Shown here: in pieces, positions 9,741 through 37,070 of the stretch | How positions within the stretch are numbered: the stretch's first letter is position 1 | Layout: each line of letters starts with the position of its first letter | From: Candidatus Omnitrophota bacterium | Lineage (GTDB): Bacteria; Omnitrophota; Gorgyraeia; Pluralincolimonadales; Pluralincolimonadaceae | Length of the DNA stretch: 64,000 nucleotides | Direction: 5' to 3' | NCBI GenBank assembly: GCA_003141835.1 | Contig: PLNR01000007.1 | Coordinates: 3,639-67,638, forward strand | The notes under the pieces: generated by a model | Seen by the model: the letters and a program-made list of their open reading frames with translations, nothing else | Database searches by the model: none | Told to the model about the DNA's origin: nothing | Position numbers and translations under genes: made by a program

Positions 9741-10204
9741 AGTCGGTATTGATGGTATGCACCGGCAACTCATGCCGCAGCGTAATGGCCGAAGGGCTTT
9801 TGAAAAAATGGCTCAAAGACAACGGATGCGGCGATGTCAGGGTCGCCTCGGCCGGGATAGCGACCATCCCGGGCATGATGGCCAGCTCGAACGCGATAGA
9901 CGTGATGAAGAGGGAGCATGTCGACATTTCAAGCCACCGGGCCCAGGCCGTTTCCGAAAGATTAATAAATGAGTACGATCTCATACTTTGCATGGAGCCG
10001 GTGCACGTAGCGACGATAACCGGGATTTTACCCGGCGCGGAGCGGAAAACCTACTTACTTTTGGATTACGCCTATGACGGCGATGAAAAACCCAAGAATT
10101 TGCGGATCACCGACCCTATCGGGAAACCGAAAGAGGTCTATGAATCAGTGCTTATAACCTTAAAAGACGCGATAGAAAAGTTAGGGAGGAAGATATGCGG
10201 ATAG
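9734..10204 (+). CDS. low-molecular-weight protein-tyrosine/arginine phosphatase (YwlE-like)
   Basis: CX5R P-loop (CTGNSCRS) near the N-terminus and a DP loop (ITDPIGKP). It lacks the Cys82/Cys89 pair of LMW-PTP-type ArsC. Confidence 0.75.
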   Translation: MVKSVLMVCTGNSCRSVMAEGLLKKWLKDNGCGDVRVASAGIATIPGMMASSNAIDVMKREHVDISSHRAQAVSERLINEYDLILCMEPVHVATITGILPGAERKTYLLLDYAYDGDEKPKNLRITDPIGKPKEVYESVLITLKDAIEKLGRKICG

Positions 10205-10638
10205 CTATCGGCGCCGACCACGGCGGTTTCGATCTCAAGAGTAAGGTCATAAAATACCTCAAGTCGAAAGGCTATGAGATAAAGGATTTCGGGTGCTATG
10301 CGCCGGAGCCATGCGATTATCCCAAATACGGGTTCCTCGTCGCGGAAGCGGTCGGGAAGAAGAAATTCGCGCGCGGCATATTGATATGCAAAAGCGGCAT
10401 AGGGATGTCGATAGTCGCCAATAAGGCCCGCGGCGTGAGGGCAGCCCTCGTCTACAATATCGAGGACGCGCGCTTATCCCGCGAACACAACGACGCGAAC
10501 GTCGTGGTCTTCGGCTCGAGATCTATGAACACTTATAAGGTGAAGAAGATACTGGACGTGTGGCTTTCGACGAGGAGGCTCGGCGGGAGGCACTTAAGGA
10601 GAGTAAAGCAAATATCCGACCTGGAGGCGAGCCGATGA
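10195..10638 (+). CDS. rpiB: ribose-5-phosphate isomerase B
   Basis: 147-aa ORF with the RpiB/LacAB pattern ([33 protein letters not shown]). Confidence 0.85.
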
Positions 10639-11891
10639 ATAATCTTAAGAGGGTGGATCCGGAGATCTACGAGGCGATCGTAAACGAGACGCGCCGCGAG
10701 GAGGAGAATATAGAGCTCATTGCGAGCGAGAATTTCGTGAGCCGCGCGGTACTCGAGGCGCAGGGCTCGGTCCTTACGAATAAATATGCCGAGGGTTATC
10801 CGGCGGCGCGGTGGTACGGCGGGTGCGAGCACATAGATGTCGCGGAAAAACTGGCCATTGAGCGCGCGAAGGAGTTGTTTAAGGCCGATCACGCCAACGT
10901 CCAGCCGCACTGCGGTTCGTCTGCTAACATGGCGGTATATTTCTCGGCGCTAAACATGGGCGACACGGTCATGGCGCTCGACCTGGCGTGCGGCGGCCAC
11001 CTCACCCACGGCCACAAGGCCAATTTCTCGGGAAAATATTTCAACATCGTCCCTTACATGGTCGACCGCAAGACCGAGATGCTCGATTACGACGAAATAG
11101 AAAAGACAGCCCTGCAATGCAAACCGAAGATGATACTTGCCGGCGCGTCTAATTATTCACGGGCGATAGATTTTCGAAGGTTCCGCCAGATATGCGACAA
11201 AGTCGGGGCGTATCTCATGGTCGATATGGCGCATTTCGCCGGGCTTGTCGCAGCCGGGATACATCCGGACCCGGTCCCTTACGCGGAATTCGTCACGACC
11301 ACGACGCATAAGACGCTTCGCGGGCCGCGCGGCGGCATGATATTATGTAAAAAAGAGTTCGCAAGGAAGATAGATTCGATGGTATTCCCGGGCATCCAGG
11401 GCGGTCCGTTGATGCACGTTATAGCCGCGAAAGCCGTGTCATTCAAAGAAGCGCTCAAGCCCGAATTCAAGGAATACCAGAACCAGATATTGAAAAATGC
11501 GCGTGCCCTAGCAGGGGCATTCCAGAAACGCGGCTACAGAGTCGTCTCAGGCGGGACAGATAACCACCTCTTCTCGCTCGACCTCAATACCAGCAAGGGC
11601 ATAAGCGGCAAGGACGCGCAGGAAGCCCTCGACAAGGCCGGGATAACCGTAAATAAAAACACGATCCCGTACGATCCGAACCCTCCGGCGAAGCCGAGCG
11701 GGATAAGGATAGGCGTTCCGGCGGTGACTACGCGGGGCATGAAAGAAAAAGATATGGAAGAGATAGCCGGCCTCATCGACGAAGTTTTAAGCAATATTAC
11801 CGACGCGGCCGTCGCAGGACGCGTAAAGGAAAAAGTGCGCGCGGTGGTAAAGAAGTTCCCGCTCTATCGCGACCTTTTGAGCGAGGCTTAA
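10635..11891 (+). CDS. glyA: serine hydroxymethyltransferase
   Basis: Start chosen at the internal ATG 10635, which is preceded by GGAGG. The track ORF's upstream extension lies inside rpiB. SHMT motifs are present ([20 protein letters not shown]). Confidence 0.9.
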
Positions 11892-11892
11892 T

Positions 11893-12375
11893 ATGGTTAA
11901 AAAGAACGAGGTAAAAAGGAAGCGCCCGGACTGGGACGAATATTTCCTGGGAATAGCGGACCTGATATCCGAGCGTTCGACATGCCTGAGGCGGCAGGTC
12001 GGCGCGCTGATCGTAAAGAATAAAAGGATACTTACCACCGGCTATAACGGCACGCCGAGCGGCATTACGCACTGCGAGGTCACGGGCTGCTTAAGGGATA
12101 AGCTCAAGGTCCCGTCCGGCGAGAGGCATGAGCTCTGCCGCGGGCTGCACGCGGAGCAGAACGCCATAATCCAGGCCGCGCTCCACGGCGTCGATATCCA
12201 CGGCGCCGTTCTGTATTGCACTAACCAGCCGTGCTCTATCTGCGCGAAGATGCTCATAAACGCCGGCATAAAAGAGATAGTGATGCAAGCGGGCTATCCC
12301 GACGAGATGGCGAAAGAATTTTTTGAGGAGGCGGGCGTGGAGGTAAGGATGGCTAAGTCAGGAAAGAAGGTGTAG
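11893..12375 (+). CDS. deoxycytidylate (dCMP) deaminase, ComEB-like
   Basis: 160-aa ORF with cytidine/deoxycytidylate deaminase zinc motifs ([15 protein letters not shown]). Confidence 0.8.
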
Positions 12376-12376
12376 G

Positions 12377-12859
12377 GTGAAATGCCCATTTTGCGGTAAC
12401 GTAGAAGATAAAGTCATAGATTCCCGCATTTCGGCCGAGGGCGGCTCTATCAGGCGCAGGCGCGAGTGCCTCAAGTGCCAGAAAAGGTTCACGACATACG
12501 AGCGCCTCGAGGAACACCCCCTGATGGTGATAAAGAAGGACGGGCGGCGCGAACCGTTCGACCGCAAGAAACTGCTTTCAGGCATACTCAAGGCCTGCGA
12601 GAAACGCCCGGTACCGATGGACAGGGTCGAAGGGATGGTAGACGAGGTCGAGAGGATCATCCAGCGCAATTACGAGAAGGAAGTCTCCTCGACGGCGATA
12701 GGCGAATTCGTAATGAAAGAGCTGCATGACCTCGATGAGGTCGCCTACGTTAGGTTCGCATCGGTCTACCGCCAGTTCAAGGACATAAACCAGTTCATGA
12801 AGGAGTTGTCGTCACTTCTGAAAGAGGGGCAAAAGCCCGACGAGAAGAACAGATTTTAA
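12377..12859 (+). CDS. nrdR: transcriptional repressor NrdR
   Basis: GTG start. N-terminal zinc ribbon (CPFCG...CLKC) followed by an ATP-cone. Confidence 0.85.
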
Positions 12860-13754: not shown

Positions 13755-13894
13755 TATTGCACCTGCGATACAAAGCCGTATCGGAAGTTTTCCTGCAATA
13801 AAAACAGCGAGGCACATCTAGACAAAGACGTCTTCTGTTACATCCTATTATGCGTTGGGGGACGCATCCATTTTTTAAAAAAGGAGCCAGCCAA

Positions 13895-15235
13895 ATGCCA
13901 GCAAAGAAGATCGAAGATTTCATGGCGAAAGTCATGGAGAGAGACCCTGCCCAGCCCGAATTTTACCAGGCGGTGCAGGAAGTCGCGGAGTCCGTATGGG
14001 ATCATATAAGTGACAATCCCAAGTACCAGGAAGAGAAGATACTCGAAAGGATGGTCGAGCCCGAAAGGGTCTTCATGTTCAGGGTTCCCTGGACAGACGA
14101 CAAGGGCAACATCCAGATAAACCGCGGTTTTCGCATCCAGATGAACAGCGCGATAGGCCCGTATAAAGGCGGCCTTCGCTTCCACCCCAGCGTCAACCTC
14201 GGCATACTCAAATTCCTCGCTTTCGAACAGGTATTCAAGAACGCGCTTACGACGCTTCCCATGGGCGGCGGAAAAGGCGGCTCGGATTTTGACCCTAAGG
14301 GAAAGTCCGACTCCGAGGTCATGAGGTTCTGCCAGAGTTTTATGACGGAGCTCCAGAGGCATATCGGCCCGGACACAGACGTACCTGCCGGCGATATAGG
14401 CGTCGGCGGCCGCGAGATAGGGTTTTTGTTCGGCCAGTATAAGAGATTACGCAACGAGTTCACCGGAGTCTTGACCGGCAAGGGCCTGAAATGGGGCGGA
14501 AGCCTCATAAGGCCGGAAGCGACCGGTTACGGCTGCGTATATTTCGTAGAAGAGATGATGAAGACGAAGGGCCAGAGCCTCAAGGGCAAGACCTGCGCGG
14601 TATCCGGCGCCGGTAACGTCGCCCAGTATACCGTCGAGAAGCTCATCGATCTCGGCGCGAAAGTAGTCACGCTTTCCGACTCGAACGGCTTCATATATGA
14701 CGAGGGCGGCATCGACAATAAAGAATTGAGCTGCGTCCTCGAGCTTAAGAACGTCCGCCGCGGAAGGATCAAGGAATGCGCGAAAGAGTTCAAGTGCAAG
14801 TATTTCGATAACCAGCGCCCGTGGGGCATCAAGTGCGATGTCGCTTTCCCGAGCGCCACGCAGAACGAGATATCCGGCGAAGACGCGAAGATGCTGGTCA
14901 AGAACGGGTGCATCGCCATAGGCGAAGGCGCGAACATGCCTACGACGCCCGAAGGCATCAAGGTCTTCCAGAAGGCGAAAGTCCTTTATGCGCCGGGAAA
15001 GGCCTCGAACGCCGGCGGTGTCGCAACCTCGGGCCTCGAGATGTCCCAGAACAGTATGAGGCTATCATGGTCGCGCGCTGAGGTCGACAGCAAGCTGCAT
15101 GATATAATGATCGCGATACACGAGCAGTGCGTCAAGTACGGCAAAGAAGGCAATTACATAAACTACGTCAAGGGCGCTAACATAGCCGGCTTCGTAAAAG
15201 TAGCCGACGCTATGATAGACCAGGGCCTGGTCTAA
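13895..15235 (+). CDS. gdhA: NADP-specific glutamate dehydrogenase
   Basis: Start at the internal ATG 13895, preceded by AAAGGAG. GDH motifs are present (GGGKGG, GAGNVA). Confidence 0.9.
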
Positions 15236-15254
15236 CCGCCGAAGATAAGGCAGG

Positions 15255-15288
15255 CAAGGGCGTCCCTAAAGGGCGCCCTTGTTTTTTA
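15255..15288 (+). terminator. rho-independent terminator after gdhA
   Basis: Stem CAAGGGCG/CGCCCTTG (extendable, imperfect) followed by TTTTTT, 20 nt after the gdhA stop. Confidence 0.6.
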
Positions 15289-15297
15289 GGAGAGGAT

Positions 15298-17871
15298 ATG
15301 GTCAGCACCGGCTTTAAGGGCCTCGATAAGGTAATAACCGGATTAAGGGTGGGCGATAACGTCGTCTGGCAGATCGACGATATCAGGAATTACCAGGATT
15401 TCCTCGGTCCGTTCGTCAAGAAGGCCCTAGAAGAGAAGAAGGAAGTCGTATATATAAGGTTCGCGGACCATAAGCCCCTCATTGAGGCGGGAAAGGGCGT
15501 AAAGATATACAAGCTTGACGCCCACGAAGGGTTCGAATCGTTCTCCACCCAGCTTAACAGCATCATAAAGGAACACGGGGAAGGCGTCTATTACGTATTC
15601 GATTGCCTCTCCGACCTGCTCTCGGCGTGGGCGAACGACCTCATGATAGGCAATTTCTTCAAGATAACATGCCCGTACCTCTACGAGCTCAATACCATAG
15701 CCTACTTTTCAATACTGCGCAACAGGCACTCCTTTAAGACCATCGCCCGTATCCGCGAGATAACGCAGCTCCTGATAGACGTCTACGAATACGAGGGCAG
15801 GTACTATGTCCACCCTCTCAAGGTCTGGAACAGGTATTCGCCGACGATGTTCCTGCCTCACCTGATGAACAAGGACCGCTTTGTGCCGATAGCGAACAGC
15901 GTCGATACGGCGCGCCTCTTCTCTAATGTCCTCAAGAAAGGCACAAAGAGCACCCGCAGGATACTCGATTACTGGGACCGCCTATTCATAAAAGTGGAGG
16001 ACCTCGCCTCAAAGGCGGGCTCGCAGGACGAGAAGAAGGACATGATAAAGCAGCTCTGCAGGATAATGATCGCGCGCGAGGAAAAACTCCTTTCGCTGGT
16101 CGAAGAATATTACTCCCTCGAGGACCTGCTGGGCATCAAGTCAAAGATGATAGGCACGGGGTTCATCGGCGGCAAGGCCGTCGGCATGCTGCTCGCGAGG
16201 AAGATGCTCCTTAAGGAGCGTTCGCTGGGCATGGAGAAATATTTCGAGCCGCACGATTCGTTCTATGTGGGTTCCGACGTCTTCTACACTTATATAGTCG
16301 AGAACGGGTGGTGGAAACTCAGGATGGAGCAGAAGACGAAGGAGGGATATTTTTCCGTAGCCGAGGCGCTCCGCGAAAAGATGATGGGGGGGATCTTCCC
16401 GGAAGAGATAAAGGAGCAGTTCCGGCAGATGGTAGAATATTTCGGGCAGTCGCCCATAATCGTGCGTTCCAGCAGCCTGCTGGAAGACAGTTTCGGCAAC
16501 GCCTTTGCCGGGAAATACGAGAGCATATTCCTGGTGAACCAGGGTTCGCCGGAGGAGCGGTACAATAAATTCGTGGAGGCGGTGAGGCGTATCTACGCGA
16601 GCGCCATGAACAAGGACGCGCTGGCATACCGACTGCAGCGCGGCCTCGACCGGGCCGATGAACAGATGGCCCTGCTGGTCCAGAGGGTCTCGGGCGCGTA
16701 CCATTCGGATTATTTCTTCCCGGATATCGCGGGAGTGGGGATATCGTATAACACATACGTTTGGAACAAGGATATGGACCCCAAGGCCGGGATGCTAAGG
16801 ATAGTGGCGGGCCTGGGGACGCGTGCCGTCAACCGCGTAGAGGGCGACTATCCCAGGATAGTGGCCCTCGACATGCCCCTGGTCAAACCGCTGGCCGGCG
16901 CAAAAGATATGCAGAGGTTCTCCCAGCACGACCTTGATGTCCTTAACATTAAAGAGAACAGGCTCGAGGCAGTGCCGCTGAGGAAGTTATTGGCCGATAA
17001 GGTGGAGATCAGCCTTGAATATACCGGCGCCAGGGATTACGAGGCGGACCGCCGCACGGAAGAGGCGGGAAAAGCCGCCGAAGAGCACTGGATACTGACT
17101 TTCGACAAGCTTTTCTCCGGGACGTCATTCGGCGAGATGATGCAGAAGATACTCAAGCTCCTCGAAAAGCGTTACGGATACCCGCTCGACATCGAGTTCA
17201 CCGTGAATTTCAAGAAAGACGGGACATTCCAGATAAACCTGCTGCAATGCCGTCCGCTGCAGACGAAGGGCCTCGGAAAAAAGGTGGAGTTCCCGGAGGA
17301 TATCAAGAACGAAGATATCATCTTCCGTTCAAAGGGTTCTTTTTTGGGAGGGAATATATCACAGCCGATAAAGAGGCTGATATTCATCGACCCGCAAAAA
17401 TACAGCGCGCTGCCGATCTCTTCAAAGTACGATATCGCCCGCGCGGTGGGGGAGCTCAACAAGCTTATCAGTGACAGGGAAGCCCTGCCGTGTTTCCTTA
17501 TGGGCCCGGGCAGGTGGGGCACGACGACGCCGTCGCTCGGGGTCCCGGTCTCATTCTCCGAGATAAATAATATGGCAGTCCTGGGAGAGCTCGGGTTTTC
17601 CGGGGCCAATTTAACTCCCGAGCTTTCGTTCGGCACGCACTTTTTCCAGGACCTGGTGGAGACGAGCATATTCTATGTTGCGCTCTTCCCCGAGAGCGGG
17701 CAGACCCTCTTCAACCGCGGAATGATCGATTCCTGCCGGAACCTGTTAAAGAAACTGGCGCCTTCATATGGGAAATATGAGGACGTCATAAAGGTCTGCG
17801 AGCCTGCCAACAGGCAGATGCGCCTTGTCGCTGACATCGTCTCCCAGGATATCCTGATGTTCTTCCGATAA
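15298..17871 (+). CDS. multidomain protein: N-terminal KaiC/RecA-like domain lacking a P-loop + PEP synthase/PPDK-type ATP-grasp nucleotide-binding domain + degenerate His-less swivel-like C-terminus
   Basis: The N-terminal ~280 aa resemble KaiC-like ATPases (GFKGLDKVITGL, DxLS-like VFDCLSDLL), but the Walker A is replaced by GLRVGDNVVW. Residues ~285-620 carry PPDK_N/PEP-synthase ATP-binding signatures (IGGKAVGM, IIVRSSSLLEDSFGNAFAGKYES). The C-terminus has GPGRWGTTTPSLGVPV where a GGRTSHAAI phosphohistidine motif would be. Confidence 0.6.
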   Translation: MVSTGFKGLDKVITGLRVGDNVVWQIDDIRNYQDFLGPFVKKALEEKKEVVYIRFADHKPLIEAGKGVKIYKLDAHEGFESFSTQLNSIIKEHGEGVYYVFDCLSDLLSAWANDLMIGNFFKITCPYLYELNTIAYFSILRNRHSFKTIARIREITQLLIDVYEYEGRYYVHPLKVWNRYSPTMFLPHLMNKDRFVPIANSVDTARLFSNVLKKGTKSTRRILDYWDRLFIKVEDLASKAGSQDEKKDMIKQLCRIMIAREEKLLSLVEEYYSLEDLLGIKSKMIGTGFIGGKAVGMLLARKMLLKERSLGMEKYFEPHDSFYVGSDVFYTYIVENGWWKLRMEQKTKEGYFSVAEALREKMMGGIFPEEIKEQFRQMVEYFGQSPIIVRSSSLLEDSFGNAFAGKYESIFLVNQGSPEERYNKFVEAVRRIYASAMNKDALAYRLQRGLDRADEQMALLVQRVSGAYHSDYFFPDIAGVGISYNTYVWNKDMDPKAGMLRIVAGLGTRAVNRVEGDYPRIVALDMPLVKPLAGAKDMQRFSQHDLDVLNIKENRLEAVPLRKLLADKVEISLEYTGARDYEADRRTEEAGKAAEEHWILTFDKLFSGTSFGEMMQKILKLLEKRYGYPLDIEFTVNFKKDGTFQINLLQCRPLQTKGLGKKVEFPEDIKNEDIIFRSKGSFLGGNISQPIKRLIFIDPQKYSALPISSKYDIARAVGELNKLISDREALPCFLMGPGRWGTTTPSLGVPVSFSEINNMAVLGELGFSGANLTPELSFGTHFFQDLVETSIFYVALFPESGQTLFNRGMIDSCRNLLKKLAPSYGKYEDVIKVCEPANRQMRLVADIVSQDILMFFR

Positions 17872-17923
17872 AGGTCGACAAACCCGTTTTTTAGTAGTAA
17901 AATAACCGTCAAAACGATATCAG

Positions 17924-19210
17924 ATGAATATAAACGTACCCTATGGAAAAAAACAAGTAAGCGTATCTATCCACGAGAAGAACCTCTTGGGAGTCCTCTA
18001 CCCGAAGAGGTCCCATAGCAAGAAACCCGAATCCCGCATAATAAAAGAAGCTATCCTCAACCCGATGGGCTGTTGCCGGCTCAGGGACCTCGTCTCGCCC
18101 AAAGAGACGATCGCCATAGTCGTTCCGGACCTCGCAAGGGTATGCCCCCGTAAGCTCATACTTCCCATATTACTTGATGAGCTGAAAAAGGGCGGGATAA
18201 AGTACAAGGATGTGACGATCTTCATGGCGGTCGGGATGCTCACGCCCCCGACAAGGCAGGAGATCGAAGAAGCTTTCGGCAAAAAGATCGTCAAGCGGAT
18301 AAAAGTAAAGATCCACGACCCCTCGGATAGCTCAAACCTGACCAACCTGGGATATGTCGCCAACGGCGTCCCTGTAATAGTCAACAAAGAGATGCTTTAT
18401 AACGACCATGTCATTTCGATCGGCGTCATCGAGCCGCACCTGCACGCCGGTTTTTCGGGCGGGCCAGAGACGCTGAGCATAGGCATGGCAGGGGAAGAGA
18501 CGATAAGGTTCACCCATTCGCCGAAATTCATCGATAGGCCGGGCGCGAAACCCGGTGTTATCAAGGATAACCCCTTCCACCGCTGGATCATGGAATTCGC
18601 GTGCATAGCCAAGCTGAAATTCATAATAAACGTCGTGAATGACGACCTGGGGTGCACGATATTCGCGACCGCGGGAGAGCCACAGCTGGCTTTTTACAGG
18701 GGGATAGAACACGCGATGCTCCATTACAGGGTGAAGGTGGATGAGCCGGCCGATATAATCATCTGCGGAGTGGGCTGGCCTAAAGATGTCAACCTCTACC
18801 AGGCATCACGCGCCCTGACCTACCTGACCAACACGCAGAAACCCATCGTCAAAAGGGGAGGGCTTATACTCATCTCCGCGCGATGCGAAGACGGCATAGG
18901 TAAGGGGCTGGGGGAACGCAGGTTCTATGAAGCTATGGTCAGGGCGAAGAGCCCCGCCGAGATCGTAAAGAAGATGAAGAACAAGGCTTGTCTTGCCGGA
19001 GAACAGAGGGCGTATGCCGTGGCGAAATCCCTTCTTTTTGCCGATTGCGCGTTCGTCGGGACAAAATTCCCCGATATGGCAAAGAAGATGAAGATGTTGT
19101 CTTTTAAGGATATGGATGAGGCGCTGGAATATGCTTTTGCCACCCGCGGAAAGGACGCGAAGGTCTATGTCGTCCCGCACGCGCTCGTAACCCTGCCAAT
19201 ATCGCGATGA
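17924..19210 (+). CDS. larA: LarA-family nickel-pincer-dependent 2-hydroxyacid (lactate) racemase/epimerase
   Basis: 428-aa ORF. Strong colinear similarity to LarA is seen by eye (VPYGK, IEPHLHAGFSGG, GEETIRFTH, NLYQASRAL, CEDGIG). Confidence 0.8.
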   Translation: MNINVPYGKKQVSVSIHEKNLLGVLYPKRSHSKKPESRIIKEAILNPMGCCRLRDLVSPKETIAIVVPDLARVCPRKLILPILLDELKKGGIKYKDVTIFMAVGMLTPPTRQEIEEAFGKKIVKRIKVKIHDPSDSSNLTNLGYVANGVPVIVNKEMLYNDHVISIGVIEPHLHAGFSGGPETLSIGMAGEETIRFTHSPKFIDRPGAKPGVIKDNPFHRWIMEFACIAKLKFIINVVNDDLGCTIFATAGEPQLAFYRGIEHAMLHYRVKVDEPADIIICGVGWPKDVNLYQASRALTYLTNTQKPIVKRGGLILISARCEDGIGKGLGERRFYEAMVRAKSPAEIVKKMKNKACLAGEQRAYAVAKSLLFADCAFVGTKFPDMAKKMKMLSFKDMDEALEYAFATRGKDAKVYVVPHALVTLPISR

Positions 19211-21987
19211 CCCAGCCGGAGAAAGAATTAAAAAAGATCATCAAAGGCGACGTCCTCTTTGATGATATGGCCCGCTATGTCTATTCGTTCGGCGCCTCGA
19301 TCTATAAGATAAAACCAAAAGGCGTCGTCATACCTAAAGACAAAAATGATGTCGTCGAGCTCGTCAAATACGCTTCGCGCAACAATATCCCGCTTACCGC
19401 GCGCGGCGCGTGCACAAGCCTCGCCGGACAGGCGGTCGGCAACGGCATAATAATCGATTTCACAAAATACATGAACAAGGCCGTCGACTATAAAGGCGGC
19501 GATACGGTCACGGTCCAGCCCGGCATAGTCTACGGCGAATTGAATAAATTAACGGCCAAATACGGGAAATTTTTCCCGCCGGACCCGTCGAGCGGCGCTT
19601 ATTGCACGATAGGCGGGATGATCGCCGATAATTCCGGCGGCCCGCATTCGATAAAATACGGCACCGCAGCGGATTGGATCCTCGAGCTCGAGGTCGTCCT
19701 CGCTAATGGTGACAGGGTAACCCTGCTACCGCGCGCGAAGATAAAAAATATTTCGGCCCCGCTCGCGGAATTGCTTAAAGGGAACGAAGAGACCATAAAA
19801 AAGTACGCTCCCAAGGTCATGAGGAGCTCGAGCGGATACAATGTATACGATATCCTTAAGGGCGACATCGTAGACCTGGTGAAATTAATGGCCGGGTCCG
19901 AGGGGACGCTTGCGGTCATAACGGAAGCGAAGTTGAAATTGGCGCCGCTGCCGGGGTTCCGCGCCACGCTTTTACTTTCCCTGAAAGACCTCCGGTCGCT
20001 GGGCGATGCCGTAGCGGAATTGCGCAAGCTATCGCCGTCCGCTGTAGAGTTCATGGACGAAACTTTCATTAAACTTGCCGTCGAGGCGGAACCGAAGCTT
20101 ACAGACCTGCTCCGGAGCGCGTCAAAGGGAGTATTGCTCGTCGAACTGGAAGAGGCAAGCACGCCCGCCCTTGACGAGAAGATAGCTGCGGTAAAGGAAC
20201 GGCTCCTCGGAGAGGGGAAGTTTATATCCGGGATAAATGCCGCGAAGGATGCGGACGAGCAGGACCGCATCTGGGGAGTCAGGCGCGCGGCGGTCCCGAT
20301 CACTAACAGGATAAAAGGAAAGAAACGCCCGATACCGTTCATCGAGGACGCGATAGTCCCGCCGGAGAACCTCGGCGATTTTTTAATAGGCGCTTACGCG
20401 ATATTCGAGAAATACGGCGTAGAGGCGTGCGTCTACGGGCATGCCGGCGACGGCAACATGCATATACGGCCGCTCCTCGACATGAAGGACAAGGCCGACC
20501 TCGCAAAGATCGACAGCATAGCCGACGATTTTTACAGGATGGTCATCTCCCTCGGCGGCTCGACGACGGCCGAACACGGCGATGGAATCCTAAGGATTCC
20601 ATACCTCAAGAAACAGTTCGGCCCGCTTTACGATGTTTTCGTAAAGATAAAGGATATATTCGACCCGAAGGGCATTTTAAATCCCGGGAAAAAGATAGGG
20701 AAAGACGCCGGCATCACCCATGACCTCATCTATGACCCCGATATAAAATACGTCAGCACCAAGACGGTATTCGATTCCGGGAAGATAAGGGAGGAGATAG
20801 AGAGGTGCCACGCCTGCGGCCTTTGCAGGAACGTCTGCCCGGTGAATGTTAACCTGCCGCAGGAACTCGCTTCGCCGCGCGCGAAGGCGGCGATACTCAA
20901 GGCCATCATCACCGGAGAGCTGGACAAAAAAATTCTCCTCAGCCCCGCCATCAAGGAAGTCCTCGACCTTTGCATCAATTGCAAGTCCTGCCGCGTCGAA
21001 TGCCCGACAGGCGCCGACGTCTCAGGGCTTTGCGCCATGGCGAAAGAGATATATGTCAGGGAATGGGGAATTCCTTTCTCCCAGTCGATCCTCGAGAATA
21101 TGAGGCTCCTCGGGTCGGCCTCGGCCGAATTGACGTCCCTCGCCGATATCCTAATGTGTACCGCGTTCGGCAGGAGCCTGATGGAAGCATTCCTAGGCCT
21201 GGACAAGAGGCGAATCCTTCCCAGGCCGAGCGTGCCGCCGTTTGAAAAAAGAAAATTAAGCGGGAAGGGCGGCAGGAGGAAGGTCGCGTATTTTTATGGT
21301 TGCTATGTGAATTTCTTCAATGCGGAAGGCGAAGGCGCGGCCGTGCTTAAGGTGTTCGAGAAAAATGATATAGATGTCATCATCCCGCGCCAGAGATGCT
21401 GCGGTATCCCGAGCATCTCATCGGGCAACGCGGACGCGGTCAAGGCGGATATTGCCTATAACCTCAAATACCTCAATGAAGCTGTCAAGTCGGGATGCGA
21501 TATTGTGACCGGATGCCCGAGCTGCGGGCTCGCGATCAAGGAAGATTACCCGAGGATACTGTCTACACCCACGGCGCTCCTCGTCTCGCAGAAGACCTTT
21601 GATATCCATGAATACCTGTGGCTCTTGTTCAACGAGGGCGAGATGAACACCGATTTCAAATCCTCGCAGAAGACCGTCGTATTCCATGTGCCCTGCCACC
21701 TGAAGGCGCAGGAGATCGGCGACCTGCAGGAGTGCCTGGTCGAGCTGATCCCGGGGATACTGATAAAGAAGATCGCGGATTCCTGCTGCGGCATGGGCGG
21801 GACGTTCGGGCTCAAAAAGAAGAACTACGACTTATCGCTCGCCATCGGGGAAAGATTGTTCGACGCGATAAAAGAAGCGAAGGCCGACTACGTAGTCACA
21901 AGCTGCGGAGCGTGCAAGGCCCAGATATTCCAGGCCACTTCAGCGAAGGTCATCCATCCTATCGAGCTCCTCGCCGAATCTTATTGA
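19207..21987 (+). CDS. FAD-binding oxidase fused to 4Fe-4S dicluster + CCG domains (Dld-II / GlcD-GlcF fusion type D-lactate dehydrogenase-like)
   Basis: 926-aa ORF. The N-terminal half is an FAD-linked oxidase (GlcD-like). It contains CHACGLCRNVCP and CINCKSCRVECP clusters plus two CCG motifs (CCGIPS, SCCGMGG). ATGA overlap with larA. Confidence 0.8.
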   Translation: MTQPEKELKKIIKGDVLFDDMARYVYSFGASIYKIKPKGVVIPKDKNDVVELVKYASRNNIPLTARGACTSLAGQAVGNGIIIDFTKYMNKAVDYKGGDTVTVQPGIVYGELNKLTAKYGKFFPPDPSSGAYCTIGGMIADNSGGPHSIKYGTAADWILELEVVLANGDRVTLLPRAKIKNISAPLAELLKGNEETIKKYAPKVMRSSSGYNVYDILKGDIVDLVKLMAGSEGTLAVITEAKLKLAPLPGFRATLLLSLKDLRSLGDAVAELRKLSPSAVEFMDETFIKLAVEAEPKLTDLLRSASKGVLLVELEEASTPALDEKIAAVKERLLGEGKFISGINAAKDADEQDRIWGVRRAAVPITNRIKGKKRPIPFIEDAIVPPENLGDFLIGAYAIFEKYGVEACVYGHAGDGNMHIRPLLDMKDKADLAKIDSIADDFYRMVISLGGSTTAEHGDGILRIPYLKKQFGPLYDVFVKIKDIFDPKGILNPGKKIGKDAGITHDLIYDPDIKYVSTKTVFDSGKIREEIERCHACGLCRNVCPVNVNLPQELASPRAKAAILKAIITGELDKKILLSPAIKEVLDLCINCKSCRVECPTGADVSGLCAMAKEIYVREWGIPFSQSILENMRLLGSASAELTSLADILMCTAFGRSLMEAFLGLDKRRILPRPSVPPFEKRKLSGKGGRRKVAYFYGCYVNFFNAEGEGAAVLKVFEKNDIDVIIPRQRCCGIPSISSGNADAVKADIAYNLKYLNEAVKSGCDIVTGCPSCGLAIKEDYPRILSTPTALLVSQKTFDIHEYLWLLFNEGEMNTDFKSSQKTVVFHVPCHLKAQEIGDLQECLVELIPGILIKKIADSCCGMGGTFGLKKKNYDLSLAIGERLFDAIKEAKADYVVTSCGACKAQIFQATSAKVIHPIELLAESY

Positions 21988-23104
21988 GGATTATTTCCGC
22001 GGCGCGACTGCTCGCGCCCGGCCCGCCCAATCCTGACCTTACCGCGGCAAGGCGCGTCCTCATCGCTTCCATTTTTTCGGGGGAGGATAAGAGCGAGGAG
22101 GCCTCGGAGGTTATCTTTGAAGGCGTGGCGTCGAATTGCACCAGCTCCGGCACTATCTTTTCCCCGGCGATGATATTCACCAGCCCGATATTCGGTATCC
22201 TTACCAGCATTTTTCCAATAAGCCATGTAAGCAAAGAGACCTTGTAAATTATCAGCATCGGCTTATCGAGTATCATCGTCTCTACCGTCGCCGTCCCTGA
22301 GGCGACCAGCACAAGTTCCGCGGCATTTATACAATCATACGGGTAACCTTCCGCGACCACCGGCTTAAGAGGCGCCCTCTTCAATATTTTTTCGTATACG
22401 GAAGAGCTTATCTCCGCCGGCTTGGCCAGTATGAACTGCGAATCCCCGAACCTGTCCTTTATCCTCTTGGCAGCCTTTAACATTATGGGGAGATTTCTTT
22501 CTATCTCCGTGAGGCGCGAGCCGGGGAGGAGGGCGATCGTCTTAAAGGCCGGTTCAAGCCCGTATTTTTTCATGAACTCCTCTTTTTTAAACGACGGCCT
22601 TACCGAATCGAGCAGGGGATGGCCCACGAATTCCACGTCGACGCCTTCTTCCGCATAGAAATCCTTTTCAAAACCCAGGATGACGATCATCTTGTCGACG
22701 TATTCCTTGATGATATTTACGCGTTCCTTGCGCCAGGCCCATATCTGCGGGCTGATGTAATATATGACCGGGATGCCGCGCTTCTTCGCCTCTTTCGCGA
22801 ATCGCAGGTTGAATTCCGGGTAATCTATGAGGACGACGCAATCAGGTTTTTCGGAATCGAGTTTTCCTGCGAGGAGGTTGAAGGCGGCCTTGAATTTCCC
22901 GAGGCTGCTCAATATCTCGATGAGGCCAATGACCGAAAGGTCTTTTATGTCCTGGAATGACTGCAGGCCGGCCTTTACCATCTTCTCGCCGCCCATCCCG
23001 ATGAGTTTTACGTCCGGTTCCAGCTCTTTTAACGCGAGAGCGAGGCTTGAGCCGTGCAGGTCGCCCGAAGCCTCGCCAGCTATTATCATTATCTTTTTAG
23101 GCAT
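21959..23104 (-). CDS. lpxB: lipid-A-disaccharide synthase
   Basis: 381-aa minus-strand ORF (MPKKIMIIAGEASGDLHGS...), GT19 LpxB pattern. Its 3' end overlaps the 3' end of the convergent oxidase gene by 29 nt. Confidence 0.85.
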   Translation of the reverse strand: MPKKIMIIAGEASGDLHGSSLALALKELEPDVKLIGMGGEKMVKAGLQSFQDIKDLSVIGLIEILSSLGKFKAAFNLLAGKLDSEKPDCVVLIDYPEFNLRFAKEAKKRGIPVIYYISPQIWAWRKERVNIIKEYVDKMIVILGFEKDFYAEEGVDVEFVGHPLLDSVRPSFKKEEFMKKYGLEPAFKTIALLPGSRLTEIERNLPIMLKAAKRIKDRFGDSQFILAKPAEISSSVYEKILKRAPLKPVVAEGYPYDCINAAELVLVASGTATVETMILDKPMLIIYKVSLLTWLIGKMLVRIPNIGLVNIIAGEKIVPELVQFDATPSKITSEASSLLSSPEKMEAMRTRLAAVRSGLGGPGASSRAAEIILNKIRRGAR

Positions 23105-24171: not shown

Positions 24172-27100
24172 ATGAGCCTTAAAAAGGAAACTTGCGTTCA
24201 TCGTAAAATAATTACGCTTTTGATTGTATCCGTAATAGCGGTGTTCGCGTTCATTAAGCCGGCCGGCGCGGCGACAGTTAACGTAACGAATACAAATGAC
24301 AGCGGGCTGGGCTCGCTCAGGCAGGCGATAACAGACCTGAACGCGACCGGAGCCGACGGCGATATCATCCAATTTACCGTGGCAGGCACTATCACTTTGG
24401 CCACCGGCCTTCCTCTTCTCACCCACGAGACGAAATTCGATCCCAACGGCAACGACGTCACATTGACGGGCAAAAACGGCGGAACGGACGCGGGTAAATG
24501 GTTTAAAGTCGAAGGCGCGAGCACAAACACCGTTACTTTCGGGACCGGCACGACGTGGTCGGTTGCCGGCGGGCTGGTCGTCGGAGATAACGCTAAAGGC
24601 TCGATGACCATTTCAGGCGGCGGTTCGGTGACCAACGCCGATAAAGCATATGTCGGTGGAGGCGCAGGCTCAAACGGTGCCATAACTGTTAACGGAGCAG
24701 GTTCCACCTGGACCAATGCCCAGGATATATTTGTCGGCCACCTTGGCACCGGTACCCTGACCATCTCCAACGGCGGTACTGTAAGCGATACCTACGGCAA
24801 TATCGGAAGTAATGTAGGCGGAATCGGCACCGTAACGGTTGACGGGGCGGCCGGCGCCACGCACTCCACTTGGACCAATAACACGGGGCTTATCGTCGGC
24901 AATACCGGCACCGGCACATTGAATATCACCAACGGCGGCCACGTCACCAACGTCTGGGACTCATTTCTCGGCGTCGGGGCGGGATCTTCCGGCACCGTTA
25001 ATGTCGACGGCGCAGGTTCAACGTGGACCAATACCGCAAAGATGTATGTCGGATCCGACCGCACCGGCATATTAACCATTTCCAGCGGCGGTTCGGTAAG
25101 CGATGCCCATGGTTATATCGGCGGTTTCGCGGGCTCAGACGGTACCGTGACCGTCAAAAATGCGGGTTCCTCTTGGGTCAATGTTGCCGGAGGGGGCAAC
25201 GATGGCGGTCTCAGTATCGGCGACATCGGCACCGGCACGCTGCATATCCAGAGCGGCGGCGCTGTGACCAGCGATTACGTAGATCTTGGCATTAACAATA
25301 CCGGCACCATAACCGTTGACGGTGCCGGTTCTACCTTGACCAGCAATGGTGACCTTAATGTCGGCAAAGCCGTCACTGGTATAAAAACCGGAACATTGAC
25401 CGTCACTAACGGCGGCGCGGTAAGCAGCGTTCACGGTTATATAGGCAAGGACGCCGGTTCAAACGGTAATGCCACGGTTAGCGGTGCAGGTTCCACATGG
25501 ACCAATACCACCGATCTGTATGTCGGTTCCAGCGGTAACGGTGACCTGACGATATCAGGCGGAGGCACCGTAACGGTCGCGGGCGGGGCAGGAACGGTTA
25601 CCGTCGGAAATATTGCGGGTTCCGACGGCGTACTTTTCATAGGCAACGCCGGGGCAGCCGGTACTTTAAATGCCACGGAGGTTACCGGAGGCCTGGGCAC
25701 CGCGACACTGGCCTTCAACCATACCGATGCAGCCTATACTTTTGCGCCCCTGATCTCCGGCAGTTTGAGCGTTGAGCAGGATGGCGCCGGCACCACGGCC
25801 CCCACAGCCGCCAACACCTACACCGGCGTAACGACGTTAAATGCCGGAACTTTAGGCATTGCCACGATCAGTAACGGTGGTACGGCAAGTAACCTTGGTG
25901 CCGCTACGAGCGCCGCGGCCAATCTCGTTTTCGCGGGCGGCACGCTGAAATATACCGGCGCCGACGCAGCCACCGACCGGAATTTTACTATCGCTGCAAA
26001 TAAGGCAGCCGTCATAGAGGTGACCGTAAATACCCTGACAATGAACGGAGCAAGTACCGGAGTGACGAACGGCGGATTGACCAAGACCGGCAACGGCACT
26101 CTTGTCCTGGCGGGAGCCAGCGCTTACACGGGAGCCACTGCGATAAATGCCGGCAGGTTAGCGGCCAGGAACGCCAACGCCCTAGGCAACGGATCGGCGG
26201 TTACTGTCGCGAACGGCGCTACACTTGACGTCGGGACTACCAATGTCACGGTTAATAATACCTATACCCAGGATGCCGGCTCGACCCTGGCCCTTACCGT
26301 CTCAGGGCCGTCATCGTCGGGCAAGATAACATCCGACCACGCTGCGGCCGTATCTGCAGGGAGCAATGTCAATGTTACGGTCCCAGGCAGTATCTATATT
26401 CCTAATAACGCCACATTCACGGTAATAGACGCTGCGGCAGGCGCCGGAGTAAACGCCCCCGGCACTATCACGTCAAGCGATCCCCGCCTGACGTTCTCGG
26501 CTATAAGCTCAAACGGCAGCCTTATACTTATGGTAAACCGTTCCGCGACCGGTTTCTCCAGCATAGCCACAAATTCCAATTCCGCCGCCGTAGGCGCGGT
26601 CCTCGATAACATAACAAACCCGACAGCCGATATGACGACCGTCTTGAATACGCTCGAGGGTTTGAGCGCTTCACAGGCAGCTTCAGCCCTTGATACCATT
26701 GTCCCGACCATGGATAGCGGAGTGGTCACAACCAGCACCACCTCACTTAACGGGTTCACCGGGGTAACGATCGAAAGGCTCGGAGAGCTTTTTGCCCAAG
26801 CCCGCGACGCCGAGACCGGCGTGTCTACGGGAAGCGAGGGATCTAAGGGCATTGAGGCCTGGGGCCGCGGCTTCGGTGAATATGTGCACCAGAGTCCTCG
26901 CGGGACAAGCAACGGCTATTTCGCGACGGTCTGGGGTACGGCCATCGGCGGCGATATCCCGGTATTTGATGACAGGGTCCGTGTGGGTTTGAGCGGAGGA
27001 TATGCGAGGAGCGATATCAATTCCAAAGATAACAGCGGCAGGACGGATATCAACAGCTACCAGGGCACATTATACGGCGGTTACATAGACGGCAATAATC

Positions 27101-27684
27101 CCTACTACATAAACGGCGCTTTCTCCTTCGTGTATAACCAGTACAAGGGCTTAAGGAATATATCCGTCGGTACTATCCAAAGGACTGCCGACGCCGATTA
27201 CGACGGCCAACAGTATTCTATATTATTAGACGGGGGCTATACCTTCAAGGCCGGCGACCTGCGGATAACCCCGCTGGCGTCATTGCAATATCTCCGCCTG
27301 CACCTCCAGAGCTATACCGAAAGCGGGGCGGATGCGCTTGATCTAAATGTGAAGAGCCAGAATTACGATATGCTCCAGTCGGGTGTGGGCCTGAGGTTAG
27401 AGCGGCCCTTCGAAGTCGAATACGGCATACTTACGCCCGAGGTCCACGCCAAATGGCTCTACGATTTCATAGGTGACAAACAGGAGACGACTTCTACGTT
27501 CTCCGGCGGCGGCGGCTCGTTCGCCACGCAGGGATTCAAACCCGCGCAAAACGCGTTAAATGCCGGGGCGAAGCTTACGTATAACATTAAAGATAACTGG
27601 TCCATCGACGCTAATTATGATTTTGAATATAAAGAAGACTTCGTTGCCCACACAGGTTGGATCGATCTGGGATACAGGTTCTAG
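24172..27684 (+). CDS. type Va autotransporter with PATR (autotransporter-associated beta-strand) repeat passenger and C-terminal beta-barrel
   Basis: Strong RBS (GGGGAGGAGGG) and a signal peptide. It has more than 10 degenerate ~45-50-aa repeats (GAGSTWTN...YVG..GTGTLTISNGGTVS). The ~280-aa C-terminus is an autotransporter beta-domain ending ...GWIDLGYRF. Confidence 0.8.
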   Translation: MSLKKETCVHRKIITLLIVSVIAVFAFIKPAGAATVNVTNTNDSGLGSLRQAITDLNATGADGDIIQFTVAGTITLATGLPLLTHETKFDPNGNDVTLTGKNGGTDAGKWFKVEGASTNTVTFGTGTTWSVAGGLVVGDNAKGSMTISGGGSVTNADKAYVGGGAGSNGAITVNGAGSTWTNAQDIFVGHLGTGTLTISNGGTVSDTYGNIGSNVGGIGTVTVDGAAGATHSTWTNNTGLIVGNTGTGTLNITNGGHVTNVWDSFLGVGAGSSGTVNVDGAGSTWTNTAKMYVGSDRTGILTISSGGSVSDAHGYIGGFAGSDGTVTVKNAGSSWVNVAGGGNDGGLSIGDIGTGTLHIQSGGAVTSDYVDLGINNTGTITVDGAGSTLTSNGDLNVGKAVTGIKTGTLTVTNGGAVSSVHGYIGKDAGSNGNATVSGAGSTWTNTTDLYVGSSGNGDLTISGGGTVTVAGGAGTVTVGNIAGSDGVLFIGNAGAAGTLNATEVTGGLGTATLAFNHTDAAYTFAPLISGSLSVEQDGAGTTAPTAANTYTGVTTLNAGTLGIATISNGGTASNLGAATSAAANLVFAGGTLKYTGADAATDRNFTIAANKAAVIEVTVNTLTMNGASTGVTNGGLTKTGNGTLVLAGASAYTGATAINAGRLAARNANALGNGSAVTVANGATLDVGTTNVTVNNTYTQDAGSTLALTVSGPSSSGKITSDHAAAVSAGSNVNVTVPGSIYIPNNATFTVIDAAAGAGVNAPGTITSSDPRLTFSAISSNGSLILMVNRSATGFSSIATNSNSAAVGAVLDNITNPTADMTTVLNTLEGLSASQAASALDTIVPTMDSGVVTTSTTSLNGFTGVTIERLGELFAQARDAETGVSTGSEGSKGIEAWGRGFGEYVHQSPRGTSNGYFATVWGTAIGGDIPVFDDRVRVGLSGGYARSDINSKDNSGRTDINSYQGTLYGGYIDGNNPYYINGAFSFVYNQYKGLRNISVGTIQRTADADYDGQQYSILLDGGYTFKAGDLRITPLASLQYLRLHLQSYTESGADALDLNVKSQNYDMLQSGVGLRLERPFEVEYGILTPEVHAKWLYDFIGDKQETTSTFSGGGGSFATQGFKPAQNALNAGAKLTYNIKDNWSIDANYDFEYKEDFVAHTGWIDLGYRF
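26270..27684 (+). repeat. autochaperone + beta-barrel-encoding segment; dispersed paralogous copy of 47730-49141
   Basis: The C-terminal ~470 aa of the two autotransporters align colinearly. Long identical runs include LQYLRLHLQSYTE, GADAL.LNVKSQNYDMLQS, LTPEVHA.WLYDFI and TTSTF.GGGGSFATQGF. Confidence 0.6.
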
Positions 27685-36176: not shown

Positions 36177-36473
36177 ATGACTAGGCCATGCAGATGCAGG
36201 AAAATAAGATGCAGCCCGGGTACGAATTACTTCAAGCCTCGAGGCATCCCTCTGGATATGTTAGAAGAGGTGAACCTTACTTTGGATGAGTTGGAAGCGG
36301 TAAGGCTCGCGGATATGGAAGGGCTGTACCAGGAAGATGCAGCGAAGAAGATGGATGTCTCCCGGCAGACCTTCGGCAATATCATTAATTTAGCCCATAA
36401 AAAAATAGCGGACGCTCTTTTAAATGCCAAGGCGTTGAAGATCGAAGGCGGAACAGTGAGAAAGGTACGTTAA
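36177..36473 (+). CDS. DUF134 (UPF0251) family predicted DNA-binding protein
   Basis: 98-aa ORF with the family-typical pattern (RPCRCRKI..SPGTNYFKPRGIP...LTLDELEAVRLAD.EGL.QEDAAKKM.VSRQTF). Confidence 0.75.
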   Translation: MTRPCRCRKIRCSPGTNYFKPRGIPLDMLEEVNLTLDELEAVRLADMEGLYQEDAAKKMDVSRQTFGNIINLAHKKIADALLNAKALKIEGGTVRKVR

Positions 36474-37070
36474 ATGGAAGGCTTGACAAAACAGGACCGG
36501 GACAGATTGAAACTGTTCAAGAAATACGGCTATGACATCCCGAAAGCAAGGGGTTTTATCCTCAGGAAGGCCGGGTTAGACAAAGGCAGTATTTTAGAGA
36601 TCGGCACCGGAAGGGGGCATATGGCCATTGCCTTAGCGAAAAAGGGCTTTAGGGTGGTATCAATAGACCTGGATAATGATGCGCAAAAGGCTGCCGGATC
36701 AAATCTCAAGGCTCTCGGGCTTGATAAGCTAGTGACCCTGAAAATAATGGATGCCGGAGTCTTGAAATTTAAAGACAGTTCTTTTGAAAATGCGATCTCG
36801 GTCAATTTTCTTCATCACGCGAAAGCCCCGGTCAAATGCCTTAAAGAGATGGCCAGGGTATCTGGAAATAAGCTGGTAATCGCGGATTTCAACCGGAAGG
36901 GTGAACGGATAGCGGAAAAGATACACGGGATGGAAGGCCATACACATCCGCGCTCTAGATTGTCTCCGGGTTCAATAGCGGCATTATTAAGGAAGTTGGG
37001 CATGAATGTAATTAAACACAATGACAGCTGTCAGTATGTTCTGATAGCAACGAAAGGAGAAACAAAATGA
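36474..37070 (+). CDS. class I SAM-dependent methyltransferase
   Basis: SAM-binding motif I (ILEIGTGRGHMA) and an acidic motif II (VVSIDLD). 198 aa. Confidence 0.7.
   Translation: MEGLTKQDRDRLKLFKKYGYDIPKARGFILRKAGLDKGSILEIGTGRGHMAIALAKKGFRVVSIDLDNDAQKAAGSNLKALGLDKLVTLKIMDAGVLKFKDSSFENAISVNFLHHAKAPVKCLKEMARVSGNKLVIADFNRKGERIAEKIHGMEGHTHPRSRLSPGSIAALLRKLGMNVIKHNDSCQYVLIATKGETK

Follow-up and report, generated by a model that had tools for sequence, protein, structure and literature searches.

A LarA-like protein lacking the cofactor-tethering lysine and the D-side histidine, encoded in overlap with a fused FAD/Fe-S dehydrogenase in Candidatus Omnitrophota

The enzymes of the LarA superfamily that have been characterised use two histidines and a lysine, the exception being a single-histidine subfamily of unknown function that lacks His174 (PMC12611868). 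LarA itself employs His108 as the base for D-enantiomers and His174 for L-enantiomers; its cofactor is bound at the ribose by Asp72 and at the phosphate by Arg75, which also binds the carboxylate of the substrate, and the nickel has His200 as a ligand (PMC12611868). Lys184 is the tether of the cofactor, a nickel-pincer nucleotide (NPN), and has been termed 'universally conserved' in the LarA literature, and covalent binding of NPN is not obligatory in every LarA (PMC11796402). Here we describe a gene pair at positions 17924-21987 (+) of a 64,000-nucleotide (nt) stretch of a Candidatus Omnitrophota genome (assembly GCA_003141835.1, contig PLNR01000007.1, positions 3,639 to 67,638 of the forward strand), which we refer to as the window. 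Its first gene encodes a LarA-like protein of 428 amino acids (aa) in which both His108 and the lysine have been replaced, and its second a 926-aa fusion of a flavin adenine dinucleotide (FAD) domain with an iron-sulphur (Fe-S) module.

The closest described relatives of the 428-aa protein are the malate racemases Mar1 and Mar2 (LarAH5 and LarAH6) and the wider LarA superfamily (PMC7583248, PMC11770544), which have the same two-domain fold, with template modelling (TM) scores of 0.87-0.94 between the window protein and LarA structures and of 0.68-0.70 to the open-state Mar2 apoprotein. A Gly-x-Gln-Arg motif in the window protein resembles the GHK / (H/Q)+K signature of the malate racemases, and a sister allele with His and Lys at the two positions has, like Mar1 and Mar2, the full set of catalytic residues. 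Unlike Mar1 and Mar2, the window allele has Leu, Glu, Ala and His in place of His108, Lys184, Thr74 and Tyr/Phe176, and its translation is coupled to that of a fused FAD/Fe-S dehydrogenase. The single-histidine proteins LarA_Sp and LarA_Bw (groups 14, 15 and 17; PMC12611868; PDB 9Q2U, 9Q3J, 9Q3K) resemble the window protein in combining a LarA fold with the loss of one catalytic histidine, and are regarded by specialists on the family as likely functional, with a non-standard mechanism (PMC12611868). They lack the L-side His174 (which is Asn) and keep the lysine tether, with covalent NPN in LarA_Sp, whereas the window protein lacks the D-side His108 together with the lysine; it is 17-20% identical to them and, unlike them, is recently derived from a canonical malate-racemase-like enzyme. 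No description of a LarA variant lacking both His108 and the lysine was found in the LarA literature.

On the side of the dehydrogenase, Dld-II of Shewanella is reportedly a fused FAD/Fe-S D-lactate dehydrogenase (PMC4481167), and we know of no report in which either Dld-II or its Escherichia coli counterpart in domain order, YdiJ, is coupled to a LarA-family gene. Clusters of a racemase with an FAD-dependent lactate dehydrogenase do exist, the lct operon of Acetobacterium woodii being one example. In the wider family, COG0277 dehydrogenases adjoin 35% of the group 1 LarA genes, which also have EtfAB as neighbours, and the Fe-S oxidoreductase COG0247 adjoins 39% of the group 4 genes (PMC7583248 Table S1). 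With such pairings of LarA and flavin or Fe-S dehydrogenases on record, the type of module found in the window is already known and the window pair follows the same logic; it differs from the known clusters in that the dehydrogenase is of the fused Fe-S type, the genes overlap, the substrate is likely a dicarboxylate and the racemase partner is without a canonical centre. YdiJ (PMC9504171) and, reportedly, Dld-II have the same domain order as the 926-aa protein, fusions of this type being about 920-1020 aa long, and YdiJ shares with it the motifs 'PIPFxED..VPPE' and 'H-[IV]-R-P'. A different pair occurs in other Omnitrophota (L020:8514-11281 and L023:8505-11272), where a GlcD-like flavoprotein of 494-499 aa without an Fe-S module lies upstream of a canonical LarA homologue and either abuts it or overlaps it by 4 nt.

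The LarA-like gene of the window (17924-19210, +) is a member of the family by domain and fold, as its product has the Pfam domains Lar_N (E 4e-53) and LarA_C (E 3e-17) and aligns with solved lactate/malate racemase structures (E 1e-62 to 2YJG), and its AlphaFold2 model, with a predicted local distance difference test (pLDDT) score of 95.6, has TM scores of 0.94 to the LarA of I. pallida (9EID) and 0.92 to 5HUQ. It passes none of the NCBIfam equivalog models of the LarA family (LarA, LarAH5, LarAH6, LarAH10 and others), the best being that of the malate racemase LarAH6 (348.6 bits against a cutoff of 500), with LarA at 309.8 against 460 and LarAH5 at 297.5 against 462. The dehydrogenase gene (19207-21987, +) begins within an ATGA start/stop overlap at 19207-19210 (+), an arrangement that implies translational coupling and that is kept, across synonymous divergences (dS) above 1.5, in all related loci bearing both genes (L001-L004, L006, L007, L009, L011, L012, L014, L017 and L026). 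A look-up of the exact sequence of the window's LarA-like protein gave no match, and the comparisons draw on relatives; a scan of genome contigs yielded two related loci and one of metagenomes ten. Close relatives are annotated as metagenome-assembled genomes (MAGs) of Candidatus Omnitrophota; since the pair and its overlap recur in these loci, the arrangement is not due to chance. A sigma-70-like match upstream (TCGACA-17-TAAAAT, 10/12; 17875-17903, +), which is a consensus match only and not functional evidence, is a possible start of a bicistronic unit with the LarA-like gene first. A first-pass annotation, made from the letters of this DNA alone, had described a LarA homologue joined by an ATGA overlap to a GlcD-like FAD oxidase fused to a 2x[4Fe-4S] + 2xCCG module, with no larBCE in the window, and these parts of it agree with our results. 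Neither Pfam and NCBIfam models nor tblastn with Lactiplantibacillus plantarum LarB, LarC1, LarC2 and LarE found larB, larC or larE in the 64 kb, in which AIRC is represented by PurE alone, a 167-aa protein of the pur operon; nor were these genes found beside canonical or H/K-type LarA genes.

The catalytic centre departs from that of every characterised LarA. Residues were mapped onto the genuine L. plantarum LarA, encoded in the plasmid-borne lar operon, whose numbering reproduces all published residue numbers. In the window protein Thr74 corresponds to Ala71 (GCA, 18134-18136, +), His108 and Arg109 to Leu106 (CTC) and Thr107 (18239-18244, +), Phe176 to His174, Lys184, the cofactor tether, to Glu182 (GAG, 18467-18469, +), and Lys298 to Arg; these substitutions are also visible in a phmmer alignment of the window protein to solved LarA. 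Retained are Asp72, Arg75, His174, His200, Tyr294 and Gln295, the first four as Asp69, Arg72, His172 and His198. The catalytic L-side histidine thus stands in a His-Leu-His run (codons 172-174, 18437-18445, +) in which the second histidine, His174, is new and occupies the Phe176/Tyr position, and an arginine, Arg195, lies three residues before the retained nickel ligand His198 (codons 195-198, 18506-18517, +). The first-pass annotation had reported conserved LarA active-site motifs, which is wrong for this centre, where Thr74, His108, Phe176 and Lys184 are Ala, Leu, His and Glu. It had also proposed to inspect the lysine tether and the two catalytic histidines, holding that their absence would tell against its reading; of the three, His174 alone is kept. 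For the two states of the centre we use the terms L/E (Leu106 and Glu182) and H/K (the canonical His and Lys).

This combination is rare. In a MAFFT alignment of 120 database homologues obtained from one search, Ala, Leu and Glu at positions 71, 106 and 182 occur in the query and its 7 closest relatives only, with Thr, His and Lys in the 22 remaining members of the clade (68-80% identical) and in all 90 distant homologues (112/112, including Thr at codon 71). Leu106 is present in all 14 L/E sequences. Among 147 LarA representatives of the superfamily, sampled at 50% clustering, the His108 position is His in 141/144 and the Lys184 position Lys in 142/146, and the sole other double loss is in an unrelated LarA homologue, P0298 (449 aa), which has acquired H108Y and K184E independently, along with D72H and R75I. 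Replacement of this lysine by glutamate is therefore not a single event in the superfamily.

Selection has been maintained on the L/E form. In nine distinct L/E genes, drawn from different samples, the length is 428 codons without exception, with no stops or indels, and their pairwise ratios of non-synonymous to synonymous divergence (dN/dS) are 0.045-0.10 at dS 0.2-1.7, below those of the partner gene (0.10-0.17). Distant homologues define 59 positions with a conservation of at least 95%. Of these, 52 do not vary across the 14 L/E sequences, His198, Asp69 and Arg72 among them; 3 of the remaining 7 vary conservatively and 4 have become fixed to a new residue (T71A, H106L, Y174H, K182E), so that the L/E group varies at 3/59 family-conserved positions against 6/59 in the canonical H/K clade. 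Thirteen alignment columns have disjoint residue sets in the two groups, each conserved within its group: 71 (A in L/E, T in H/K), 106 (L, H), 107 (T, R), 109 (P, L), 174 (H, Y), 182 (E, K), 195 (R or K, S), 221 (W, V), and also 208, 210, 265, 301 and 315. Position 195 is Arg or Lys in all L/E sequences and never Arg or Lys, mostly Ser, in H/K. The LarA-like L/E protein is thus rewired rather than decayed, and the unrelaxed constraint on the active site, including cofactor and nickel ligands, argues against a pseudogene and, less strongly, against a mere scaffold.

The two alleles are distributed across related species in a manner that does not follow the rest of the locus. L/E is carried by lineage A (the window, L001 and L007) and lineage B (L003, L009-L012 and L017), and H/K by lineage C (L006, L013 and L014), by L026 and by more basal lineages; the same FAD/Fe-S partner gene accompanies both. 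Flanking genes place the window nearer to lineage C than to B (tsaC 77% vs 69%; a radical S-adenosylmethionine protein gene 85% vs 75-77%; glyA, a deaminase gene and nrdR likewise), as does the partner protein, which is 82% identical to that of lineage C against 66% to B and in whose tree the L/E and H/K states are intermingled. The LarA-like gene itself changes its affinity along its length, as codons 1-75 of the window are 85% identical at the nt level to C and 65-71% to B, whereas codons 125-375 are 79-85% identical to B and 66-77% to C, and beyond about nt 1200 and in the partner gene the window is again nearer to C. The window's LarA-like gene is therefore a recombinant mosaic, with a tract approximately between nt 300 and nt 1200 (18224-19124, +) that resembles lineage B and not the sister lineage C. 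Informative sites 5' of the breakpoint number 20 uniting A with B and 67 uniting A with C, and those on the 3' side 148 and 81; the corresponding Fisher p of 2e-11 is to be read with reserve, as it comes from a breakpoint scan and is uncorrected, and it survives a 170-fold correction. A convergent origin of the shared L/E signature was considered and is disfavoured, as third codon positions alone give the same mosaic signal (Fisher p = 3e-4 to 5e-5 in comparisons with L009 and L010). The active-site core has thus been swapped as an allele by homologous recombination among related species, either lineage A having received the L/E core or lineage C the H/K core. Within lineage A, over the compared region (13850-23104), the window and L001 have 95-96% protein identity in gdhA, the PPDK_N gene and the LarA-like gene and 85-88% in the FAD/Fe-S partner and lpxB, with synonymous divergence of 0.29 in the LarA-like gene and 0.69 in the partner, a jump that suggests a further recombination breakpoint near the gene junction.

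The 926-aa partner has the Pfam domains FAD_binding_4 (aa 37-173) and FAD-oxidase_C (aa 249-495), which form a flavin domain of the GlcD/D-lactate dehydrogenase/D2HGDH type (19315-20691, +), followed by a ferredoxin-like Fer4 dicluster for 2x[4Fe-4S] (20794-21015, +) with two CxxCxxCxxxCP motifs, CHACGLCRNVCP and CINCKSCRVECP, and two cysteine-rich CCG domains (21280-21927, +; CCG at aa 731 and 860), the boundaries of the first of which are approximate. The flavin-domain motifs WGVRR (aa 356-360), GHAGDGNMHIR (411-421) and EHGDG (456-460) align, the second as GHAGDGNMH, with LDHD, LctD and 3PM9, and 10 orthologues conserve them; they supply the residues that in the D-2-hydroxyacid dehydrogenase subfamily form the His/His/Glu metal site, act as the catalytic His and bind the carboxylate through Arg (roles: PMC7801405). 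The gene is under purifying selection (omega 0.10-0.17) with all motifs conserved. YdiJ aligns collinearly over the full length of the protein at 25% identity, and the YdiJ equivalog model is not passed (398.7 bits against a cutoff of 1350). Glycolate oxidase GlcDEF was rejected as an identity for the protein, with scores of 277.8 against 567.9 (TIGR00387) and 207.9 against 897, no GlcE gene and the D- and F-like parts fused.

Homologues with the FAD/Fe-S fusion occur widely, the family numbering 7786 hits at E <= 1e-50, and both NCBI and JGI label homologues of this protein as subunit C of anaerobic glycerol-3-phosphate dehydrogenase (GlpC). The label can be traced to the C-terminal half, which passes the GlpC model NCBIfam NF008369 (309 against a cutoff of 278), and a very large family has probably been misannotated systematically in this way. 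GlpC itself is about 400 aa long, stands alone and acts together with GlpA and GlpB, whereas the window protein joins its GlpC-like part to an entire GlcD-type flavin domain, there is no glpA or glpB among the window open reading frames examined, and the architecture over the full length fits YdiJ/Dld-II. That the 926-aa protein is a GlpC, as its relatives are publicly named, we consider barely credible.

Several lines of evidence bear on the substrate. The four specificity positions of the LarA-like protein are L, H, Q and R, with Gln/Arg at W358/T359 and Gly-x-Gln-Arg at D356/W358/T359, where malate racemases have H/Q+K, lactate racemases W+E/Q and 2-hydroxyglutarate racemase H/Q+T; over all four positions the published signatures are F, F, W, E/Q for lactate racemases and Y, F, H/Q, T for 2-hydroxyglutarate racemase (PMC11770544). 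At W358/T359 the window protein therefore resembles malate racemases and not lactate racemases. In human D2HGDH Asn443 contacts the distal carboxylate (PMC7801405), and at this position, after the second metal-binding His, both the 926-aa protein and YdiJ, which is strictly specific for D-2-hydroxyglutarate (PMC9504171), have Arg, while mouse LDHD has Ile, LctD Tyr and a glycolate oxidase Leu. Across 120 fused homologues the position is Arg in 51, Asn in 27 and Met in 30. Tyr432 is also matched in the 926-aa protein, in which Lys401 and Thr390 of human D2HGDH have no confidently aligned equivalents.

Gene order points in the same direction. In lineages A, B and D the LarA-like gene stands beside a gene for NADP-dependent glutamate dehydrogenase or has a single gene in between; in the window this is GdhA, a consumer of 2-oxoglutarate (13850-15235, +), and the intervening gene (15298-17871, +), 52 nt upstream of the LarA-like gene, encodes an 857-aa protein with PPDK_N (the ATP-grasp domain of PEP-utilising enzymes) as its sole recognisable domain. 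Lineage A and most of lineage B have this protein, whereas L012 and lineages C and D lack it. Two H/K lineages, including one whose neighbourhood is rearranged, have a GltB-like PF01645 protein next to the LarA-like gene instead, so that a GdhA or GltB-like gene stands beside the LarA-like gene in 4/5 arrangements. This protein, a 525-aa stand-alone Glu_synthase (PF01645, like the FMN domain of GltB) without an NCBIfam match, takes the place of gdhA immediately upstream of the LarA-like gene (L006:8407-9984, L014 and L026:2476-4053), and in L026 the PF01645, LarA-like and FAD/Fe-S genes stay together despite the rearranged surroundings. The LarA-like gene is also found without the FAD/Fe-S partner, in group D and in the basal H/K lineage L025 (contig ERR3281021_30832). 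There it is followed, 10 nt downstream, by a 376-aa flavoprotein of the DAO family (11298-12428) whose best match is the L-2-hydroxyglutarate oxidase LhgO (NCBIfam NF008726), at 253 bits and over the first 270 residues only; such a gene is absent from the window. The LhgO-like partner suggests that the common substrate of the clade is 2-hydroxyglutarate. From these residue signatures and neighbours we favour a dicarboxylic 2-hydroxyacid over lactate as the probable substrate, with 2-hydroxyglutarate first and malate second.

We consider it somewhat more likely than not that the gene pair is a 2-hydroxyacid oxidation module with a rewired LarA-like partner. The dehydrogenase would oxidise a D-2-hydroxyacid to the 2-oxoacid in its GlcD-like flavin domain, by way of the His-His-Glu metal site and the catalytic His, and electrons would then pass through the two [4Fe-4S] clusters and the two CCG domains to quinone or another acceptor. 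Its substrate would be dicarboxylic, most likely D-2-hydroxyglutarate and possibly D-malate, and the 2-oxoglutarate formed could feed the adjacent GdhA or GltB-like enzyme. Ancestrally the LarA-like protein carried the full NPN racemase site, as it still does in sister lineages, and in these H/K lineages the LarA-type partner would racemise the substrate, letting one stereospecific dehydrogenase handle both enantiomers. The suggestion of the first-pass annotation that the pair racemises a hydroxyacid and then oxidises its D-isomer is thus sensible for sister lineages with His108, Lys184 and the same partner, and does not carry over to the window protein, which lacks the lysine and His108. The L/E protein would be unable to use a Lys-tethered cofactor with a two-histidine mechanism; given that it keeps the L-side histidine and every ligand of ribose, phosphate, nickel and carboxylate, the reading we favour most, at about even odds, is that it still binds the 2-hydroxyacid and an untethered nucleotide cofactor and, through a modified one-histidine mechanism, acts on the substrate of the dehydrogenase or delivers it.

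Several observations weigh against parts of this explanation. A glutamate beside the thiocarboxylate would be unfavourable, though the retention of Asp72, Arg75 and His200 would fit a bound cofactor, and larBCE are absent from 22 related loci (about 330 kb; tblastn and Pfam), although these genes are often unlinked. The LarA signature is closer to that of the malate racemases than to the one published for 2-hydroxyglutarate racemase, the LhgO-like match in L025 falls below its curated cutoff (253 against 299), and the partner is only 25% identical to YdiJ. The preference for a dicarboxylic substrate draws on single-residue analogies and on gene order in one close clade, which may be conserved by descent alone. 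In one MAG, STB_86 (L008; LarA-like gene 10001-11290, 98% identical to that of the window), there is a frameshift at about codon 151 on a contig with a coverage of 2.7x, which could be an assembly error or a real inactivation.

How the L/E protein works is the point at which the readings part. A working LarA-family enzyme with a new catalytic solution, without the lysine tether and without the D-side histidine, is a tentative proposal to which we give appreciably less than even weight; it includes the new His at 176 and a positive charge relocated to 195, and would call for NPN without a tether, for another nicotinamide-type cofactor or for a metal bound directly, with His/Lys and Leu/Glu cores traded among Omnitrophota, perhaps tracking the availability of nickel or of the NPN pathway. 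The paired changes K182E+S195R/K, H106L+Y174H and T71A+R107T may relocate functional groups, and Glu182, His172, His174 and His198 may, as a candidate idea, form a direct metal site. A strictly one-way racemase is thermodynamically impossible, as kcat/Km must be equal in both directions; without His108 the reaction would accordingly be slower both ways unless some other group takes its place. The main alternative, though rather unlikely and below the working enzyme in our estimation, is that the L/E protein has become a cofactor-free pseudoenzyme, a non-catalytic substrate-binding subunit or scaffold for the dehydrogenase, retained because the complex requires it. One catalytic histidine and the lysine tether are lost, cationic or hydrogen-bonding groups have gone (R107T, T71A, K182E), bulky hydrophobic residues (V221W, T265M, H106L) could fill the cofactor pocket, the translational coupling is conserved and larBCE were not found nearby, all of which would suit such a subunit. 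A pure scaffold would be expected to let its active-site residues drift over dS > 1.5, however, and those of the L/E protein, His200, Asp72 and His174 included, are under a constraint no looser than in the canonical clade; fused FAD/Fe-S homologues are moreover widespread, and the LarA-like gene persists without this partner in group D and L025.

The headline of the first-pass annotation, a lactate utilisation module, corresponds to an active NPN-dependent lactate racemase that supplies D-lactate from L-lactate to a Dld-II, with larBCE elsewhere in the genome. The LarA fold and domain matches, the retained His174, His200, Asp72 and Arg75, a partner with the architecture of Dld-II, the frequency of COG0277 dehydrogenases beside group 1 LarA genes (PMC7583248 Table S1) and the finding that covalent NPN is not universal (PMC11796402) could all be accommodated by it, yet His108, Thr74 and the 'universally conserved' Lys184 are replaced and the protein scores under all NCBIfam LarA-family cutoffs. 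Its specificity positions (L, H, Q, R against F, F, W, E/Q) are not those of lactate racemases, and the pocket of the dehydrogenase is polar and basic where the D-lactate dehydrogenases compared are hydrophobic. Lactate is therefore not the best-supported substrate, in view also of LarAH6 as best model, the YdiJ-like Arg and the 2-hydroxyglutarate/2-oxoglutarate context, and we judge an active lactate racemase improbable; the hedge in the same annotation, that this might be a divergent family member with a different substrate, came nearer to the truth. Still less probable, and to our minds nearly negligible, is that the LarA-like gene is a pseudogene in decay, or an artefact of annotation or assembly, beside a dehydrogenase that alone is functional. 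It would account for the missing catalytic residues and for the frameshift in L008, but the same four substitutions recur in 14 independent full-length sequences from different samples, dN/dS (0.05-0.10) is below that of the partner, the copies are 428 aa without stops or indels, and the L008 contig has 2.7x coverage.

Elsewhere in the window, tRNA and Rfam scans found nothing connected with the gene pair. A 490-aa protein of the TLC ATP/ADP transporter family (43402-44874, +; Pfam E 1.4e-18) is encoded; in a genome of the Omnitrophota such a nucleotide translocase is a hint of energy parasitism or of dependence on a host. There are two very large autotransporters, one of 1170 aa (24172-27684, +) with T5SS/PEP-CTERM-associated repeats and an autotransporter beta-barrel (Pfam/NCBIfam), and one of 1400 aa (44939-49141, +) recognised by sequence only; the former is missing from the syntenic L001 and is thus a variable insertion between GFO/IDH and msbA. 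A small gene cluster following a tRNA-Ser gene (36177-37432, +) encodes a DUF134 protein, a methyltransferase of class I and a protein with a dinitrogenase FeMo-cofactor-binding (NifX/NifB-like) domain.

What is new here is a selected LarA variant without His108 and the lysine, existing beside a canonical allele in sister species, with the core exchanged by recombination. The H/K allele of the sister species, in the same operon, provides a natural wild-type control and with the L/E allele forms a clean experimental pair, which bears on the need for the lysine tether, on the need for His108 and on whether the LarA fold can function without NPN. The public names 'nickel-dependent lactate racemase' and 'GlpC' are probably wrong or misleading for these proteins. 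For the organisms, the locus suggests a compact means of 2-hydroxyglutarate clearance in small-genome Omnitrophota, in which a racemase, a stereospecific flavin dehydrogenase and a glutamate-forming enzyme would be combined.

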